Below are positions 712-29,789 of a stretch of 64,000 bases of DNA, piece by piece (position 1 is the first letter of the stretch; each line of letters starts with the position of its first letter). Origin of the DNA: an uncultured bacterium (lineage in GTDB: Bacteria; Patescibacteriota; Minisyncoccia; UBA6257; 2-01-FULL-56-20); the NCBI GenBank assembly GCA_963807165.1, contig CAWDZM010000001.1:641471-705470 (forward strand), in the 5' to 3' direction. Both the position numbers and the translations under genes were made by a program. The notes under the pieces were generated by a model. That model made no database searches. It had not been told where the DNA came from and was given only the letters and a program-made list of their open reading frames with translations.

Positions 712-784
712 TGCCGCGAGAGAGAATCGAACTCACTTAACTCGCTCTTCAGGCGAGGGCTTTACCATTAAGCTATCGCGGCAT
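712..784 (-). tRNA. tRNA-Phe (anticodon GAA)
   Basis: The reverse complement gives GCCGCGA / D-arm TAGCTTAATGGTAAAGC / anticodon stem-loop CTCGC-CTGAAGA-GCGAG / T-arm GTTCGATTC / 3' TCGCGGC-A. The cloverleaf is perfect and CCA is not encoded. Confidence 0.85.
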
Positions 785-1527: not shown

Positions 1528-2622
1528 TTATTTCTTTGTCTTCAGCGTAATGCGCTTCTCTTCCTGCTTGACGGTGTCGATGACGAATGGATAGCTTTCG
1601 CCGACGGTCAGCGCTTTCTTCATCTCGTCCTGGCCGCCGAATTCGGAGATGTGCACCATGCCCTGGAGGTCACCATCGAGCGCAACGACCGCGCCGAACG
1701 GATTAAACTTATATACCTTGCCCTGCACGGTCGCGCCGGGCGTAAAGAGGCTACCGACTTTGACCCACGGATCTTCTTTGAGCGCCTTGAGCGAAAGGAA
1801 GACGCGGCCTTCTTTGATGTCAATGATCTTTGCCTTGAGCGGATCGTTCACCTTAACGAGCTCCTTCGGGTTGTCGATCAACTTGTAATCGAGCTCGGAG
1901 ATGTGGATCATGCCCTCGATCTGCGGGTTGTCGGTAAAGCGTACGAACACGCCGAAGTCTGCGGTGCCGGATACCATACAATCGACGACCTGGCCTATCG
2001 TGTAGGCATTGAGTAATTCCTTCACGTTTGCGGAAAGCACTTCGCGCTCGGAGACAATCACTTTATTCGTGCGCGAGTTGACGTCGATGATCTTGACATT
2101 CAATTCCTGGCCGACGAATTTTTTGAGCTCCTCGCCGATCTTGATGCGATCACCATCCGGAACCTTTGGATAATGTTCGAGCGAGAGCTGGGATACCGGG
2201 AGGAACGCTTTCAGATCTTCTGCGACGATGGTCATAAGCCCGCCCGCATTTGCGCCGACGATCTTTGCCTTGATGACTTCTCCTGATTCGGAAAGTTCCT
2301 TGGCGAGCTGCCAGAGCTTCTGCTTGCCGGCTTCGGAGAGCGAAAGTTCGATACAGCCATCTTCGCCATCGAGCGCAACAATCTTTGCTTGGAGGGAATC
2401 GCCGGGCTTGAGGGTGCGGAGCGCTTCGCGCGCGTTCGCGATCTCGGCGCCGAACACGATGCCGGTGCCAAAGCGGCCCATGTCAAAAAAAGCTTTGCGT
2501 GGAAGCCGCTTGATGAGCGTGGCCTCTACGACACTGCCTTCCTTCGGCCAATCGGTGGTGGATATCTCGGTTTTCAGCGCTTGCGCGACTGCGGTCGCTT
2601 TTGGTTCTTCGGTTTGTGGCAT
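1528..2622 (-). CDS. rpsA: 30S ribosomal protein S1, short 4-domain form
   Basis: Four S1 domains (GxV-motif-containing repeats). The track ORF extends to 2742, but the extra 40 aa are translated from the GC-rich palindromic element. The Met at 2622 sits 7 nt downstream of a TATAAT box. Confidence 0.85.
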   Translation of the reverse strand: MPQTEEPKATAVAQALKTEISTTDWPKEGSVVEATLIKRLPRKAFFDMGRFGTGIVFGAEIANAREALRTLKPGDSLQAKIVALDGEDGCIELSLSEAGKQKLWQLAKELSESGEVIKAKIVGANAGGLMTIVAEDLKAFLPVSQLSLEHYPKVPDGDRIKIGEELKKFVGQELNVKIIDVNSRTNKVIVSEREVLSANVKELLNAYTIGQVVDCMVSGTADFGVFVRFTDNPQIEGMIHISELDYKLIDNPKELVKVNDPLKAKIIDIKEGRVFLSLKALKEDPWVKVGSLFTPGATVQGKVYKFNPFGAVVALDGDLQGMVHISEFGGQDEMKKALTVGESYPFVIDTVKQEEKRITLKTKK

Positions 2623-2642
2623 GAGGATGATTATATCAGCGT

Positions 2643-2779
2643 TTCCCGCTTTTGCAAGTCCTGTGCGTGCTTTTGAAAGGACGGCGTTCCGTTCTGCTGA
2701 ACGGCCGCCTTGGCTCTCAGCGCCTTCGCGCTTCCGAGACACCTTTCAAAAGCACGCACAGGACTTGCAAAAGCGGGAA
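2643..2779. repeat. palindromic structured element, copy A (38-bp perfect inverted arms, 61-nt core)
   Basis: Arms 2643-2680 and 2742-2779 are perfectly complementary. The core contains two hairpins (GGCG..CCGTTCtgctGAACGG..CGCC and TCTC-AGCGCcttcGCGCT-GAGA). It is related to copy B at 23254-23378. Confidence 0.7.
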
Positions 2780-2805
2780 CCTCCTTCATTTTGTGGATAT
2801 AAAAA

Positions 2806-2840
2806 TGACCCCCGAAAATCAGGGGTCACGCTTTGTTGAT
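2806..2840. terminator. hairpin TGACCCCcgaaaatcaGGGGTCA with flanking T/A runs (bidirectional terminator)
   Basis: GC-rich stem plus U-run on both strands. It follows the small minus-strand ORF 2943-3101. Confidence 0.5.
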
Positions 2841-2942
2841 GCCGAATTTTCAGCAATTCATTACTATCATTTGAAGAGGAATTTCTCCCTTTGGAAGATC
2901 GGCAAGCCAATCGATCTCATAGAATGCATATTCTTTGCAGTT

Positions 2943-3101
2943 TCAATTCCGTGTCCCGTTTCTAGTGAGGCGATAGACGCCGTGCTTGAGATTTCCGCTT
3001 CCGAGATTGAGCCTATCTCCGGTAATCGGCAACTCTGGAAGCTCTATTATGAGGTGATAAATTCCTCTTCCGGTTTTTGATCCGGTAAGAATAGTTTCCA
3101 T
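2943..3101 (-). CDS. small hypothetical protein (52 aa) with strong Shine-Dalgarno
   Basis: METILTGSKTGRGIYHLIIELPELPITGDRLNLGSGNLKHGVYRLTRNGTRN. GAAAGGAG sits 6 nt upstream of the ATG and a terminator lies ~100 nt downstream. Not in the ORF track (<60 aa). Confidence 0.45.
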   Translation of the reverse strand: METILTGSKTGRGIYHLIIELPELPITGDRLNLGSGNLKHGVYRLTRNGTRN

Positions 3102-3147: not shown

Positions 3148-3822
3148 TTGGCAATATATGGGGTTCAGGTATTGTTGGATACCCCACCATTTTTCTACTG
3201 GAATTTTCTCTCAAACTTTGCTAAAATATATCCATATATGGTTATCAATTACTTTGGAAATGGCTGTTTTCGATTGCAGAGCGGGGAGACGTCGGTGCTC
3301 GTAAACCCGGAGAACAATCGCTTGAAAGCGGATGTGACGTTAAAGACTCTGACGGCCACGGCGGTGGATGCGGCAGCAGTCGGCGATGAACGGGTAGACG
3401 AAGTGGTCATCTCGTTCGCGGGCGAGTACGAAGAAAAAGAGATCGAGATATTGGGATTTCCGGTGCCGGAAGAATCGACGGATAAGTTTTTGAAGACGAC
3501 GTACGCGGTATTGTGGGAGGGAATGAAGTTTGTATTCCTCGGACATCTTTCTAAACCGATGGATGCGACGCTGATGGAAGAATTTTCGGAACCGGATGTG
3601 TTGATCTTGCCGGTGGGTGGCGGACACTTTCTTGAGCCGGAAGTTGCGGCGAAGATCGCAAAACAGCTGGAAGCGCGAATCGTGATCCCGAGCTTCTATA
3701 AAGATCCTGCGGAATTTTTGAAGGCGTTCGGCAAAAAAGCGGAGGACGTGGATAAATTTGTCTTCAAGCAAAAAGACATTCTTGCGGACAAGGGTCGCGT
3801 AGTAATCCTCAAAGCAAACTAA
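3148..3822 (+). CDS. MBL-fold (UPF0173-like) protein, canonical HxHxDH motif not evident
   Basis: The N-terminal MVINYFGNGCFRL..VLVNP and C-terminal VLILPVGGGHF..EARIVIPSFY resemble the short metal-dependent hydrolase family. The likely start is the Met at 3238. Confidence 0.5.
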   Translation: MAIYGVQVLLDTPPFFYWNFLSNFAKIYPYMVINYFGNGCFRLQSGETSVLVNPENNRLKADVTLKTLTATAVDAAAVGDERVDEVVISFAGEYEEKEIEILGFPVPEESTDKFLKTTYAVLWEGMKFVFLGHLSKPMDATLMEEFSEPDVLILPVGGGHFLEPEVAAKIAKQLEARIVIPSFYKDPAEFLKAFGKKAEDVDKFVFKQKDILADKGRVVILKAN

Positions 3823-4145
3823 TGCTCGAAGAACTCCAGTCGTTGAGCGAAGATAAAAAGAAACAAGTGCTTATCGTCGCCACTATCATCATTATGGTCA
3901 TCATCATTGGAGCATGGGCAGTCTATTTCAACGGTGTTATTATGGGAGCATCGCAGCTGGCGGCGGATCAAGCAACATCGACCGTGGCGGCAACCACGCC
4001 GACCACGACCCCGATCGCCATCACTACTCCAGCGCCTGCGGTAAGCGGTCCGAGTATGTGGCAAGATATAGAAGGCTGGTTCGGATCAATCGCAAATATT
4101 TTCAAAACGCCGTCGCAGTACACCATTCAACCACAGAGTAATTAA
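3822..4145 (+). CDS. small membrane protein with Thr/Pro-rich tail
   Basis: The ATGA overlap with the upstream gene, a single TM helix, and low-complexity TTPTTTP segment. Confidence 0.4.
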
Positions 4146-17896: not shown

Positions 17897-20044
17897 ATGT
17901 TACAGAAAAAGCAATTTTCCGTTGAGATCGCAGGAAAGACGTTGACGATAGAGACCTCCGCACTCGCCGAGCAGGCGAATGCCGCAGTTATCGCAAAGTA
18001 TGGCGAGACCGTCGTACTTGCGACCGCCGTCATGGCTCGCAAGGAGAGCGATATCGATTGGCTCCCGCTTAAAGTTGATTACGAAGAAAAATTTTACGCC
18101 GCAGGAAAGATCATCGGTTCACGCTACGTGCGTCGCGAAGGCCGCTCGTCCGAAGAGGCGATCTTAGCCGGCCGCTTGGTGGATCGCACCATCCGTCCAC
18201 TCTTTAACGATAAAATGCGTCGCGAGATCCAGGTGGTCGTCACGGTGTTGCAGATCGACGGCGAGAATGATCCGGAATTCGTCGGATTGATCGGCGCTTC
18301 CACTGCGCTCCTTATCTCCGACATCCCGTGGAACGGTCCGGTTGCCGGCGTGCGCGTTGCGCAGACGCCTGCAGAGCTGAACTTGGGCTTTTGGATCAAT
18401 CCGGACAATAGCGCCACGGAAAAGAATCCGCCGATCTTCGACGCGTTCGTTTCCGGTTCCAAAGATCGTATCAATATGATCGAACTTGGCGGATTGGATG
18501 CCCAAGAGAGGGACGTTGTTGCCGGCTTTACGCTCGCACAGAAGGAGATCAACAAACTGATTGAGTTCCAGGAAAAGATTCGCGCGGAGATCGGCAAGCC
18601 AAAGGCGGAAGTTATTTTGGCGGAGCCGGATGCCGACATCAAAGCGGAGGTGCGCGCATTCTTGGCGGACAAATTGGAAGGCGCAATCTATAAAGCCACA
18701 AAGGAAGAACACACGACCGCCGTTGGTGCTTTGAATCACGACCTCAACCTGCACATCAAGGAAAAATTCGGCGCAACCAAAGAAAAGATCAACTGGAAAG
18801 CGTTGGAATATATGTTCGACGAGATGGTAAACGATCTGGTACACAAGAATATTTTGGAAAAGGAGCAGCGCCCGGATGGCCGCACACTCGACGAAGTGCG
18901 CGCGCTCGACGGCGAAGTGGGATTATTCTCCCGCACGCATGGCTCAGCACTCTTCGTCCGCGGCAACACGCAGGCGCTGGCGATCACCACGCTCGCGGCG
19001 CCCGGGGCCGAACAGCTGATCGAATCCATGGAGACCAACGCCAAGCGGCGCTTTATGTTGCACTACAACTTCCCGCCGTTCTCGGTTGGTGAAGTTGGTA
19101 ACTTCCGCGGCCCCGGGCGCCGCGAGATCGGCCACGGTAACCTTGCACGCAAATCGATCGAGCGCTTACTCCCGAGTAAAGAAGAATTCCCGTACACGAT
19201 CCGTGTCGTTTCCGAAATCATGTCTTCCAACGGCTCGTCTTCTCAGGCTACGGTCTGCGCAACGACGCTCTCATTAATGGACGCCGGTGTGCCGCTCAAG
19301 AAACCGGCCGCGGGTATCGCGATGGGTTTGATGATGGCGACCAACGCCGACGGAACATCCGACGTAAATAACTACAAAGTATTGACCGACATCCAGGGAC
19401 CGGAGGATCACCATGGCGACATGGATCTCAAGGTTGCGGGTACAGACGACGGCGTGACCGGCATGCAGATGGACGTCAAAGTGGACGGACTCACGATGGA
19501 GATTTTGGCGAAGGCGTTCGAGCAGGCAAAGGCGGCGCGCATTCATATCTTGAAGACGATCAAAGCGGTATTGCCGACGCATCGCGAGGCGATCTCGCCG
19601 TTTGTGCCGAAGATCCGTCAGTTCAAGATCGACCCGTCCAAGATCGGTACGGTCATCGGTCCTGGCGGCAAGATGATTAACGGTCTCATCGCAAAGTACG
19701 AGCTGGCCGGTATTGATATCGAAGAGGATGGCGGCGTGTATGTCTCCGGTGTTGACCTCGCAAAGGTGGAGGCCGCCGTCGCGGAGATCATGGGTATGAC
19801 GAAGGAGTGGAAGGTAGGAGAAATCGTGGAAGGCCCGATCGTGAAGATTTTGGAATTCGGCGCGATCGTCGACCTCGGCGGTGGTGCAGACGGCATGATC
19901 CATGTTTCCGAGCTCAAACAGGGATTTGTGAAGCAGGTGGAAGACGTTGTGCATCTCGGCGACCACATCCGCGCGAAGATCATCAAGGCAGAGAACGGCA
20001 AGATCGGCTTGTCGTTGAAGCAGATGGAGCAACCGGCGGCGTAA
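17897..20044 (+). CDS. pnp: polyribonucleotide nucleotidyltransferase (PNPase)
   Basis: Two RNase PH domains plus KH plus a C-terminal S1 domain. It keeps the rpsO-pnp linkage. Confidence 0.95.
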   Translation: MLQKKQFSVEIAGKTLTIETSALAEQANAAVIAKYGETVVLATAVMARKESDIDWLPLKVDYEEKFYAAGKIIGSRYVRREGRSSEEAILAGRLVDRTIRPLFNDKMRREIQVVVTVLQIDGENDPEFVGLIGASTALLISDIPWNGPVAGVRVAQTPAELNLGFWINPDNSATEKNPPIFDAFVSGSKDRINMIELGGLDAQERDVVAGFTLAQKEINKLIEFQEKIRAEIGKPKAEVILAEPDADIKAEVRAFLADKLEGAIYKATKEEHTTAVGALNHDLNLHIKEKFGATKEKINWKALEYMFDEMVNDLVHKNILEKEQRPDGRTLDEVRALDGEVGLFSRTHGSALFVRGNTQALAITTLAAPGAEQLIESMETNAKRRFMLHYNFPPFSVGEVGNFRGPGRREIGHGNLARKSIERLLPSKEEFPYTIRVVSEIMSSNGSSSQATVCATTLSLMDAGVPLKKPAAGIAMGLMMATNADGTSDVNNYKVLTDIQGPEDHHGDMDLKVAGTDDGVTGMQMDVKVDGLTMEILAKAFEQAKAARIHILKTIKAVLPTHREAISPFVPKIRQFKIDPSKIGTVIGPGGKMINGLIAKYELAGIDIEEDGGVYVSGVDLAKVEAAVAEIMGMTKEWKVGEIVEGPIVKILEFGAIVDLGGGADGMIHVSELKQGFVKQVEDVVHLGDHIRAKIIKAENGKIGLSLKQMEQPAA

Positions 20045-20140
20045 AAACGCCCGCCACTGTCTCACTCTAACGTAGGAACGTCCACTCGCTTAACAGCGGT
20101 GGGCGTTTTTACTTGTCGCGGTTATAATGAGAAGAATATG

Positions 20141-22462: not shown

Positions 22463-23203
22463 TTAAAAGGAGGCAGTCCCGGAAGGGCTGGTAGAGTTGA
22501 CAGACGGGAGGGTGTTCCCGGTAGAGCTGGCAGTGGAGCTTGCCGCCACGCCGCCCACTGGCTGGTAGAATATCTGCTCTGTCACGGTCGTTTCGCCACC
22601 AAGGAACTTTTTTGCGGAGATCTCAAACGGATTAGGGCCGATGCCGAGCAGTACGCCTTTCTGCCATGAACCATCGGCGCCGACGATGATCTGCTCTTGT
22701 TCTCCATTTGCACCGACAAGATAGAGTGAGTCCGCGCCGCTCACCATGCCAGATAATGTGATCGTGCTTGATGTCGTTACGTATGGATTTGCGTTGGGGA
22801 TTTCAACGACGAGTGTCGGCTTGCCAAAAATGCGCGGTGCTTGGAACGCAAGATAGATGAGGATCAGGATTCCCGCGCCGATCGCCCAGAGATATTTTGG
22901 TGGCGATTGTTTGATGAAGCGGTTGCGGGGAAGTGTATCGAAGCCGCCGGAATTTTTTACCACCCCTTCCTTTTTTAATTTTGCCCACCACTCTTCGCCG
23001 TCAAATTCGAGGACTGCGCCGAGGTGGAGGAGGTAGCCATGAAAGTACGGCGCCGATGGCATGCTATCGTAATCGCCGCGCAATAAGGACTCGATGTGTG
23101 CCGGGGCGATGCCGGTCATCTCCGCAAGCTTTTTCAGGGAAACGCCGCGCTCCTTTATCTTTTCCGCAAAAAAATGTTCGAAGGGAAGATCGTTGGGATT
23201 CAT
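22463..23203 (-). CDS. RodZ-like protein (XRE-type HTH + TM helix + C-terminal beta domain)
   Basis: N-terminal HTH LKKLAEMTGIAPAHIESLLRG, a TM segment WAIGAGILILIYLAF and a Ser/Thr-rich tail. It is co-directional with recA. Confidence 0.6.
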   Translation of the reverse strand: MNPNDLPFEHFFAEKIKERGVSLKKLAEMTGIAPAHIESLLRGDYDSMPSAPYFHGYLLHLGAVLEFDGEEWWAKLKKEGVVKNSGGFDTLPRNRFIKQSPPKYLWAIGAGILILIYLAFQAPRIFGKPTLVVEIPNANPYVTTSSTITLSGMVSGADSLYLVGANGEQEQIIVGADGSWQKGVLLGIGPNPFEISAKKFLGGETTVTEQIFYQPVGGVAASSTASSTGNTLPSVNSTSPSGTASF

Positions 23204-23253
23204 ATAATCTGATTCTACGGCGCAATAAGAAAATAGTCCATTTTACCCGCCCC

Positions 23254-23378
23254 CGCCACTTGCAAGATGCACTCCTTTTGAAAGGACGGTGTTCCGGCCT
23301 GCTGACCGGCCACCTTGGCTCTCGCCGCCTTCGCGGCTCCGAGACACCTTTCAAAAGGAGTGCATCTTGCAAGTGGCG
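23254..23378. repeat. palindromic structured element, copy B (32-bp perfect inverted arms, 61-nt core)
   Basis: Arms 23254-23285 / 23347-23378. The core is ~85% identical to copy A, with compensatory changes in both hairpins. Confidence 0.7.
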
Positions 23379-23427
23379 AGGCGCAGCAAGAACTATTTTC
23401 TTATTGCTTGAGTGATAAAATAAAAAA

Positions 23428-28580: not shown

Positions 28581-29789
28581 ATGCGCAGACTTTATTTTGA
28601 TCATGCGGCCTCGACGCCCGTCGACCCGCGTGTTCTTCGCGCGATGCATCCGTATTTTTTACGCGAGTTTGGGAACCCTGGCTCGCTGCATTCGTTCGGC
28701 CAGAAGGCGATCGCTGCGGTGGACGCATCGCGCGAAGAGATTGGAAAATTAATCGGCGCGAAACACTTCCGCGAGATTATTTTTACGAGCGGTGCGACGG
28801 AGGCGAACAATCTCGCGCTCCGCGGCGCGGTGGAGTTCTATAAGAAGCACCATTCGGATGGCGCCGCGGATCCTGTCACTGCCCGGCCGCGCATTATTAT
28901 TTCATCCATCGAGCACGAATCAATTTTAGAAACCGCTCGCGCGTTGGAGAAAGATGGCGTCGAGGTCATCATGTTGCCGGTCAACAAAGAGGGAGTCATT
29001 GATATCATCGCGTTGAAAAATGCACTGAACGAGCACACGGTCGTTGTTTCGATCATGCACGTGAACAATGAAGTGGGAACAATCCAACCGCTCCGCGAAA
29101 TAAAATTCATGATCGACGCATTTCGCAAGGGTGCGGCCTATCCACTTTTTCATACTGATGCCGCGCAATCGTTCGCATATTTATATTGTGATGTTGCGAT
29201 GCTTGGCGTGGATATGATGACGCTTTCCGCGCACAAGATGAATGGACCGAAAGGCGTCGGCGCACTCTATGTGCGGCGCGATGAAAAGATATTTTCAAAA
29301 AGCGGCGGTTTTCCGCTGACCGCGCAGGTAAACGGCGGCGGGCAGGAGTTTGGCATACGTTCAGGCACGGAGAATGTGCCGGGTATCGTGGGGTTCGCCC
29401 GCGCAGCAACGCTCGCCGCCGCCGCTCGCGGCAAGAACGCCACGCGCGTCACGGCGTTGCGTGACGAACTATGGAAGCGTATTAAAGCCGCCGTGCCAGG
29501 CGTGGAGATCAATGGTCCGATAGGGGATGCTAAGGCGCCTCATATTTTGAACATCTATTTCCCCAGCCACGACGCGCAGGACCTGCTTACGCGGTTCGAC
29601 CGCGCCGGCCTCGCTGTCTCATCCGGCTCTGCGTGCCGTTCTCGCGCGGCGGAATCATCGTACGTCATCGAAGCGCTCGGGTATAACAAATCGCGCGCCG
29701 GTTCGAGCATCAGATTCAGCTTAGGAAAAGACACTACAAAGGGAGAAGTAGCAGCAGCGGCGAAGATCGTGGGAAGGGTTTTACAATAG
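28581..29789 (+). CDS. cysteine desulfurase (class V aminotransferase, NifS/IscS-like)
   Basis: PLP-lysine motif SAHKMNGPKG and active-site SSGSACRS. The track ORF starts at 28572. Confidence 0.9.
   Translation: MRRLYFDHAASTPVDPRVLRAMHPYFLREFGNPGSLHSFGQKAIAAVDASREEIGKLIGAKHFREIIFTSGATEANNLALRGAVEFYKKHHSDGAADPVTARPRIIISSIEHESILETARALEKDGVEVIMLPVNKEGVIDIIALKNALNEHTVVVSIMHVNNEVGTIQPLREIKFMIDAFRKGAAYPLFHTDAAQSFAYLYCDVAMLGVDMMTLSAHKMNGPKGVGALYVRRDEKIFSKSGGFPLTAQVNGGGQEFGIRSGTENVPGIVGFARAATLAAAARGKNATRVTALRDELWKRIKAAVPGVEINGPIGDAKAPHILNIYFPSHDAQDLLTRFDRAGLAVSSGSACRSRAAESSYVIEALGYNKSRAGSSIRFSLGKDTTKGEVAAAAKIVGRVLQ

Follow-up and report, generated by a model that had tools for sequence, protein, structure and literature searches.

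The window analyzed here, a 64,000-nt stretch of contig CAWDZM010000001.1 from an uncultured bacterium of the candidate phyla radiation (CPR), carries two copies of a long, nested palindromic element. Copy A (2643–2779; window numbering is used throughout) sits between the divergent rpsA gene and a gene for a metallo-beta-lactamase-fold protein. Copy B (23251–23381) lies upstream of a unit of a rodZ-like gene and recA. The two copies belong to a lineage-specific family of repeats in Paceibacteria-type CPR bacteria, of which we found no description in Rfam or in the literature searched. Its unit consists of a 61-nt core (83 nt in a variant) with two covarying hairpins, together with about 11–13 bp of inner arm conserved in the family, CTTTTGAAAGG / CCTTTCAAAAG.

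Both copies were described on the plus strand. The 5' arm of copy A (2643–2680) is 38 nt long; its inner 11 nt, CTTTTGAAAGG, are conserved in the family, and it contains the palindromic TTGCAA (2652–2657). The 61-nt core (2681–2741) consists of AC, hairpin P2, the junction TTGGC, hairpin P3, and CA. P2 (2683–2709) is formed by GGCG/CGCC and then CCGTTC-TGCT-GAACGG, and P3 (2715–2739) by TCTC/GAGA and AGCGC-CTTC-GCGCT with a 3-nt bulge, TCC. The 3' arm (2742–2779) is the perfect reverse complement of 2643–2680 (38/38 nt, 100%) and carries the mirrored TTGCAA. In copy B, the 5' arm (23251–23285) and the 3' arm (23347–23381) are 35 nt each and 97% complementary; 32 nt are perfect, starting at 23254 on the 5' side and spanning 23347–23378 on the 3' side. 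The core between them (23286–23346) is also 61 nt long and has the architecture of copy A, with the P3 variant GCCGC/GCGGC and one C·A mismatch in P2. Copy B has in addition a 16-bp outer inverted repeat. Its left half (GCAATAAGAAAATAGT, 23222–23237) is the spacer of the rodZ-like promoter, and its right half (ACTATTTTCTTATTGC, 23392–23407) mirrors this spacer on the far side of the copy. At the orthologous locus L043 (L numbers denote collected loci), the outer repeat is altered on both sides (GCATCAGGAAAATAGT on both).

An earlier sequence-only reading of this DNA had proposed two copies with a 61-nt core inside complementary arms, a core folding into two hairpins, and arms that have only TTGCAAG and CTTTTGAAAGG in common. 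All of this was borne out. Outside the core, comparison of the copies found only these two shared segments, and both RNA and DNA folding of both copies predicted a long stem with two hairpins. The RNA z-scores were −12.6 to −14.8 on either strand, and the DNA-parameter z-scores were −12 to −15.7. As DNA, copy A folds with about −68 kcal/mol, and its two strands fold equally well. The same reading had listed three compensatory changes between the cores. GGCG/CGCC to GGTG/CACC and AGCGC/GCGCT to GCCGC/GCGGC were fully compensated; in CCGTTC/GAACGG to CCGGCC/GACCGG one pair was compensated, but the other is the C·A mismatch of copy B. Four core base pairs are altered on both sides. A 45-nt core pattern matched the window only at copies A and B, with 0 matches expected from 100 shuffles. 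Other long inverted repeats (18992–19126 and 28634–28738) lie inside coding genes and are unrelated to the element.

The true start of rpsA is the ATG at 2620–2622 on the minus strand, 20 nt from copy A, with the sequence MPQT(E/D)EPK conserved in four genomes. The rodZ-like gene starts at 23201–23203, about 50 nt from copy B, so both copies lie 20–50 nt upstream of a minus-strand gene start, as had been stated. The rpsA promoter and leaderless start (2620–2657, minus strand) comprise a −35 box TTGCAA (2657–2652), a 16-nt spacer, a TG-extended −10 box TATAAT (2635–2630), and the ATG (2622–2620). A prediction tool gave 10/12 promoter matches on the minus strand, and the −10 box ends 7 nt before the ATG. 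The same layout was found at L008, L018, and L029, though their right flanks differ. The idea that an arm supplies this −35 box for the TATAAT 7 nt before the ATG is supported, with the arrangement conserved in four genomes, but the arm is the rpsA-proximal left arm and not the distal one. The promoter and start of the rodZ-like gene, which encodes an HTH_25 domain, lie at 23201–23240 on the minus strand: TGGACT (23240–23235), a 17-nt spacer, TAGAAT (23217–23212), and the ATG (23203–23201). Both window copies are thus of the promoter-adjacent type. Copy A would donate the −35 box of rpsA, and either copy may modulate or insulate the promoters beside it.

A −10 box 6–8 nt before the ATG was seen in rpsA, the rodZ-like gene, and iPGM (window 2620–2657 and 23201–23240; L018, L067, L065). 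These short distances suggest that leaderless mRNAs are common in the lineage.

Terminators had been placed next to both copies, and minus-strand hairpins with T tracts were indeed present there. A terminator-like hairpin with a T tract (2829–2805) lies 25 nt to the right of copy A. To the right of copy B, at a distance of about 45 nt, is a 16-bp terminator hairpin of bidirectional shape (23460–23425), which is conserved at orthologous loci. Upstream of the latter, the minus strand contains a promoter-like TTGACG-16-TAAAAT (23530–23503). Together the two could define a candidate minus-strand small RNA of about 70 nt, and a 24-nt imperfect inverted repeat (23472–23495/23600–23623) overlaps it. 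The open reading frames (ORFs) 2652–3080 and 22933–23415 and the 40-aa N-terminal extension of the rpsA ORF all run through the palindrome and are best read as artefacts, in agreement with the earlier reading.

To find further copies, one genome per species was scanned with the pattern CCTTGGCTCTC-N14-TCCGAGACA. The scan yielded 21 sites in seven assemblies, with up to seven sites per assembly. The assemblies are labelled Paceibacterota, Parcubacteria, Minisyncoccia, or uncultured CPR bacteria, and one is labelled Saccharibacteria. A complete 882-kb chromosome had five sites. Joint Genome Institute (JGI) metagenomes from peat added 59 further loci. A covariance model built from 22 copies gave 92 matches in the collected sequences, 70 of them distinct; its matches in the window were copies A and B only. 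The model also found a divergent second subfamily with a GGGG/CCCC stem base. The element is a real, recurring, structured unit: several copies occur per genome and their arms change with compensation, so that neither a lack of further copies nor uncompensated arm changes, both of which the earlier reading had named as refuting it, was observed. Copy number is low, at about 8–10 per 0.9-Mb genome. Literature searches for a comparable CPR element found no description.

Covariation was analyzed with an alignment of related sequences that had been fitted to the model. Among the 70 distinct sequences, 95.5% of the cells were standard pairs, vs 79% in shuffles and 35–55% with slid partners. Changes on both sides were observed in 24 of 33 pairs, and none of 500 shuffles reached the observed values. 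The stem formed by the arms (P1), P2, and P3 all covaried, and the 22-sequence set agreed. P2 tolerated many stem variants and a 22-nt branch insertion. The apical stem of P3 was mainly AGCGC/GCGCT or GCCGC/GCGGC, and the lower P3 stem, the 3-nt bulge, and the junctions were near-invariant, which was partly imposed by the search pattern. The repeated unit is the non-palindromic 61-nt core. At orthologous loci, the core was 0.89–0.96 identical (still about 0.85 without the 20 positions fixed by the pattern), compared with 0.49–0.77 for the outer arms, 0.60–0.84 for the left flanks (0.68–0.84 except upstream of rodZ), and 0.50–0.73 for the right flanks. Hammerhead, twister, K-turn, anticodon-like, and attC-like readings of the core were dropped on inspection by eye, with Rfam as the one formal test, since the defining motifs were absent.

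The strong covariation of all three helices and a core conserved above the level of coding flanks are what a genuine structured RNA would show, and RNA helices often tolerate expansions such as the 22-nt insertion in P2. The element would then be a three-way-junction small RNA or cis-acting RNA under selection at the transcript level, with the long stem as a stalk for processing by an enzyme such as RNase III, and its copies would represent either paralogous RNA genes or 3'-untranslated modules of a translation-related regulon. The neighbors, which are genes for translation and RNA functions (EF-Tu, EF-G, SecY, S6, S1, PNPase, and tRNAs), also speak for this explanation. Bidirectional promoters have a known geometry, and the −10 symmetry derived from it would put divergent starts at about 2641 and 23223, at the stem bases (2643 and 23222); the candidate plus-strand −10 boxes, however, are weak (GATTAT and GATTCT). 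Against such an RNA, Rfam searches at the gathering score (window and 20 loci) and at E ≤ 10 (around copy A) returned no family for the element, only tRNAs and noise. The composition of the stems, given next, was also unfavorable, and we consider this explanation unlikely.

The arms of 67 distinct copies were scored symmetrically. Among 1747 pairs, 1691 were Watson–Crick, 16 were G·U, 22 were A·C, and 18 were other combinations. G·U and A·C did not differ in the arms (binomial p = 0.42), and the core helices had 16 G·U vs 13 A·C. Neither strand thus had an excess of wobble pairs, whether in the arms or in the core. An RNA helix under selection on one strand should tolerate G·U but not A·C. Because G·U was not commoner than A·C or transversion mismatches and pairing was equally strict on both strands, the stems are unlike such a helix.

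The length and origin of the arms were also informative. The median arm was 29 bp, and 29 of the 67 distinct copies had perfect arms of at least 20 bp. Over 45 locus groups, the arm common to the family was only the inner 11–13 bp (53–100% per position); farther out it was near random. A loose GCAYRYGC-like motif was kept to about 20 bp at about half of the loci, and beyond that the arms were locus-specific. The outer arm proved to be an inverted copy of the sequence 5' of the core. The 5' arm includes the last 8 nt of tRNA-Ile at L005 and the 3' end of tRNA-Tyr at L016, where a decayed mirror of the T arm lies farther out. At other loci it includes the last codons and the stop of fusA, secY, tuf, pilB, or rpsA (genes named by Pfam). 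In the window, the outer arms mirror the rpsA −35 box (copy A) and the spacer of the rodZ-like promoter (copy B). In copies after ORFs, the stop codon is usually at −1 to +10 of the first paired base. At L038 and L062, the right arm or the adjoining flank complements an older CGC codon that is now AGA on the left.

A side observation was made at L036, where the element is on the minus strand with arms GGCTAGTCCC.../...GGGACTAGCC. TAG occurs in the palindromic arm on either strand. The upstream ORF stops 5 nt short of the 5' arm, and a convergent ORF of 260 codons appears to end at the TAG of the 3' arm.

The mirror extends past the perfect stem. The left flank compared with the reverse complement of the right flank had a mean local score of 8.6, vs 5.8 in controls (Mann–Whitney p = 1.5e-7), with 47% above the 95th percentile of the controls. 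Among the segments mirrored past the stem are part of the fusA coding region (L045, L006) and, at L067, the promoter of iPGM together with the start codon. Without gaps, the Watson–Crick fraction was 0.84 or more up to 25 bp from the stem base, 0.72 at 26–30 bp, 0.47 at 31–35 bp, about 0.32 at 36–60 bp, and 0.25 beyond 60 bp. As the outer arms mirror the 5' flank and the similarity continues past the stem, templated DNA copying is indicated. By contrast, it is not credible that selection would act on every additional base pair when the hairpin already has about −90 kcal/mol. An RNA function has no need of stems that reach into mirrored coding sequence, tRNA bodies, and promoter boxes. The sequence-only reading had taken arms that diverge yet remain complementary as a sign of a selected RNA or single-stranded DNA structure. 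The covariation is real, but the lack of wobble excess and the mirrored 5' flank speak against that explanation of it. Where inverted repeats are imperfect, template switching is a known process by which their arms become perfect and grow longer (PMC5941160, PMC8604942, PMC13100816).

The placement of the copies was analyzed next to their genes. In sense orientation, copies were found behind fusA, secY, tuf, rpsF, rpsA, pnp, pilB, and two unnamed ORFs, as well as behind tRNA-Ile, -Glu, -Tyr, -Lys, -Ala, and -Arg and a tRNA-like sequence. A second type of site lies against the −35 region of divergent, apparently leaderless promoters of rpsA, the rodZ-like gene, iPGM, and ssb. The same housekeeping sites were occupied in different genomes. 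Promoter-proximal placement, which the two window copies had suggested as typical, was not the rule, as most locus families lie directly after a stop codon or a tRNA 3' end.

Two further sequences were observed beside such sites. A conserved three-hairpin sequence of about 120 nt directly follows the element at L014 (about 3730–3860), L027 (about 790–930), L055 (about 310–450), and L028 (about 640–750). Its end at L014 and L027 directly repeats the last 15–18 nt of the upstream tRNA-Glu, much as if a very small element had inserted at the 3' end of a tRNA and left an att-like duplication. It had no Rfam match. Just downstream of the ssb-locus copies, ARAGORN reported a 'tRNA-???' with a two-base anticodon (L019 2262–2336, plus strand; L011 4500–4572, minus strand), which was not called by the Rfam tRNA model.

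The orientation of the copies followed the upstream gene. The end of a long ORF met the 5' arm in 20 copies but the 3' arm in only 2; counted by locus family with tRNAs included, about 15 families ended at the 5' arm vs 2. A structured RNA behind about 15 gene and tRNA families would also account for this sense orientation. Relative to the majority coding strand the count was 30 vs 14 loci, and relative to GC skew it was 37 of 50 loci raw (positive skew), or 13 vs 6 after correction. Copies A and B are on the leading, gene-rich strand, but their neighbors are not. Replication direction as the determinant of orientation was rejected, being confounded by gene orientation and contradicted by L033, a copy behind rpsA on the minority strand. 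Because L033 breaks the strand rule, the better rule is that the 5' arm abuts the neighbor.

These data also bear on a site acting as DNA, in which a cruciform or hairpin would be bound by a core-recognizing protein, for instance a topoisomerase, a nucleoid protein, or a nickase with strand specificity. Its effects would be on supercoiling, on access to promoters, or on replication; if the protein is a nickase, it could in addition cause the flank to be copied by hairpin-primed synthesis. Complementarity that is equally strict on both strands, with equal folding as DNA, agrees with this idea. So do sites behind highly transcribed units or just upstream of strong promoters, where supercoiling is extreme, the rpsA −35 box inside an extrudable stem, and a T/Y-shaped layout like that of parvoviral terminal hairpins. 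However, the orientation follows the upstream gene and not replication, with L033 as the counter-example, and Pfam scans of ten neighboring proteins identified no candidate protein. Cruciform extrusion across a 61-nt center would also be kinetically unfavorable. We therefore regard a DNA-level site as very unlikely.

The same Pfam scans of ten neighboring proteins, which were the extent of the search for a partner, found no nuclease or transposase besides a LAGLIDADG-type homing-endonuclease ORF (Pfam LAGLIDADG_3) at 773–1441 on the minus strand. This ORF lies between the rpsA terminator and a tRNA (712–782, minus strand) and overlaps the 5' end of the tRNA by 10 nt. It looks like a mobile insertion, because the orthologous spacers in L033 and L029 are without such an ORF.

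Most copies do not look like terminators. A T tract after the 3' arm was absent in both window copies and most others, and the terminators of the window copies lie 25–45 nt farther on. The possibility that the element itself is a terminator was rejected, as most copies have no T tract and a sense-strand terminator lies within 130 nt in only 13 of 65. A subset, L001 (after tuf), L023 (after pnp), and L033 (after rpsA), has an A tract, a GC stem, and a T tract starting at the stop codon. The core itself was present or absent at orthologous sites. At the pnp 3' end, L023 has the core, vs a plain long hairpin in the window (20041–20112) and in L041. At the rpsA 3' end, L033 has the core, and the window and L029 have a plain long hairpin in its place. 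The pnp hairpin of the window begins 1 nt before the stop codon and has 20 bp, a 32-nt loop, and A/T-tract flanks; that of L041 has an unrelated 61-nt loop, and a test for spacer inversion between the two loops found no similarity above shuffles. It seems that these genomes generally tend to have long, terminator-like hairpins that overlap a stop codon.

Exchange among copies was also evident. The P2 and P3 variants and the 22-nt module were distributed irrespective of locus. At the rpsA-upstream site, the window has subfamily 1 and OY970358.1 (L018) has subfamily 2, with the same outer arm CGCTTTTGCAAG. Since variants are shuffled among loci and the subfamily is swapped at rpsA, conversion or replacement among copies is indicated. 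Three copies have non-matching arms with the switch inside P3 (L041 6761–6849, L015 5351–5439, and L044 1089–1176). These hybrid-arm copies, with arms from different loci or alleles, are either recombinants or chimeras of metagenome assembly.

Shuffled variants and hybrid arms would also be produced by a non-autonomous transposon of the miniature inverted-repeat transposable element (MITE) type. Such an element would have no host function and would survive where it is tolerated, and its cores would look conserved since only young or converted copies are detected. Several copies per genome in at least two subfamilies fit this explanation, and Correia elements have the same general layout. One clean indel was found, in which L004 (680–785) carries the element with its whole 24-bp arms and L075 is empty. 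The sequences are GCATT^ATTTCT in L075 and GCATT-C-[palindrome]-TC-ATTTCT in L004, and no clear target-site duplication was seen at this single empty site. The same sites are occupied across genomes with flanks only 50–84% identical and cores 0.89–0.96 identical, the terminal repeats are unconserved beyond 11–13 bp, and only about 8–10 copies occur per 0.9-Mb genome; these features argue against a MITE. Two scans of viral contigs and BLAST searches of phages and plasmids found no copies of the element, nor any autonomous element with matching ends in these collections. We consider a MITE quite unlikely.

Among known systems, the Correia repeats of Neisseria (CREE/NEMIS) provide a close comparison. 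In both, inverted repeats enclose a conserved directional core, and the copies are intergenic and adjacent to genes. A Correia arm can supply a −35 box, and a long RNA hairpin of the kind bound by RNase III has been predicted (PMC2649163). Here too, an arm can supply the −35 box of a neighbor, and a long RNA hairpin is predicted. Correia repeats differ in being identical in every copy, in target duplication, and in their number of 100–250 per genome, whereas the family described here has 11–13 bp of common arm with the rest copied from the local flank, and its few copies stand at conserved sites. The repetitive extragenic palindromic (REP/BIME, REPIN) sequences of enterobacteria and pseudomonads are likewise palindromic repeats after stop codons and between operon cistrons. 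REP/BIME sequences form part of the transcript of the gene before them and are believed to shield it from 3' exonucleases. The REP unit, however, is a short palindrome with hundreds of copies and a transposase partner, RAYT. In the present family, what is conserved is the two-hairpin core, which is not palindromic, whereas the palindrome is specific to each site; no RAYT was found, though no search was aimed at one. Correia and REP elements are the closest relatives of the element by layout and probable effects, and it lacks the conserved terminal repeats by which a MITE is recognized.

Quasipalindrome correction and expansion explains near-perfect arms without selection, two-sided changes including transversions, and outward growth of the arms (PMC5941160, PMC8604942, PMC13100816). 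It is a mutational process and not an element, and it leaves the conserved core, the fixed orientation, and the recurrence at housekeeping loci unexplained; the spacer inversion that it predicts was not observed. Intrinsic (bidirectional) terminators resemble the subset L001, L023, and L033, and core-less orthologous sites carry plain long terminator hairpins (window 20041–20112, L029, L041). Terminators differ in having no conserved 61-nt loop. The T-shaped terminal hairpins of parvoviruses and the concatemer junctions of poxviruses offer an analogy, with two small hairpins on a long stem, an asymmetric center, and inverted flanks. The elements studied here differ in being chromosomal and internal, with no flip/flop forms seen, and we know of no Rep-like nickase for them.

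By a slight balance of probability, we favor a Correia/REP-like interspersed nested palindrome that is fixed at the ends of highly expressed genes and whose core acts as a stable hairpin in the sense transcript. An initial fold-back duplication would copy the 5' flank, inverted, to the other side of the core. The arms would then be kept near-perfect by fold-back or template-switch synthesis, that is, by quasipalindrome correction and expansion, and not by RNA-type compensatory substitution. This homogenization would continue outside coding sequence, and the mirror would decay inside it, which would account for the perfect stem usually beginning within about 10 nt of the stop codon. Sense transcripts would carry an extremely stable hairpin 3' of, or between, highly expressed cistrons, where it may be a barrier to 3' exonucleases or a site of double-strand processing, as in REP and Correia elements. 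The core is conserved and locked in orientation, and it probably acts as a very stable hairpin in sense transcripts; this function at the RNA level is inferred.

Several points weigh against this interpretation. Ascertainment inflates the conservation of the core, because the search pattern itself set 20 of the 61 positions. Next to copies A and B, the terminators and promoters on both sides are directed away from the element; its transcription at these two places is therefore uncertain, and there may be none at all. Template switching should sometimes invert the spacer, yet a flipped core was found in none of six locus families when orthologous loci were compared. A simple hairpin barrier needs no conserved two-hairpin core, which leaves the role of the core unexplained. 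Finally, the link between the orientation of the core and the flank that is copied has no demonstrated mechanism.

A more novel idea is that the core is an active 'palindrome maker', a strand-specific site, perhaps of nicking or stalling by an enzyme, that directs hairpin-primed inverted copying of the 5' side to the 3' side. We hold this idea to be unlikely. If it is true, it would produce mirrored promoters and stop-overlapping hairpins at the busiest genes of minimal genomes; we know of no report of local genome remodelling by such a mechanism in a bacterium.

The genomes of CPR bacteria are tiny and contain hardly any non-coding DNA, and only a few of their non-coding elements are known. 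In this setting, the sites held by the family are prominent ones: it lies behind the genes for EF-Tu, EF-G, SecY, ribosomal proteins, and tRNAs, and on the promoter of rpsA. Its palindromes generate false ORFs and false N-terminal extensions in annotation, and they probably cause chimeric joins in metagenome assemblies. The family also shows with unusual clarity, in nature, how a long helix can seem to undergo 'compensatory evolution' when templated DNA copying of the flank is the better explanation, which calls for caution in RNA discovery based on covariation. Should the core prove to have a specific partner or activity, it would offer a point of entry to the study of palindrome formation, promoter control, or RNA 3'-end metabolism in bacteria that have not been cultured.

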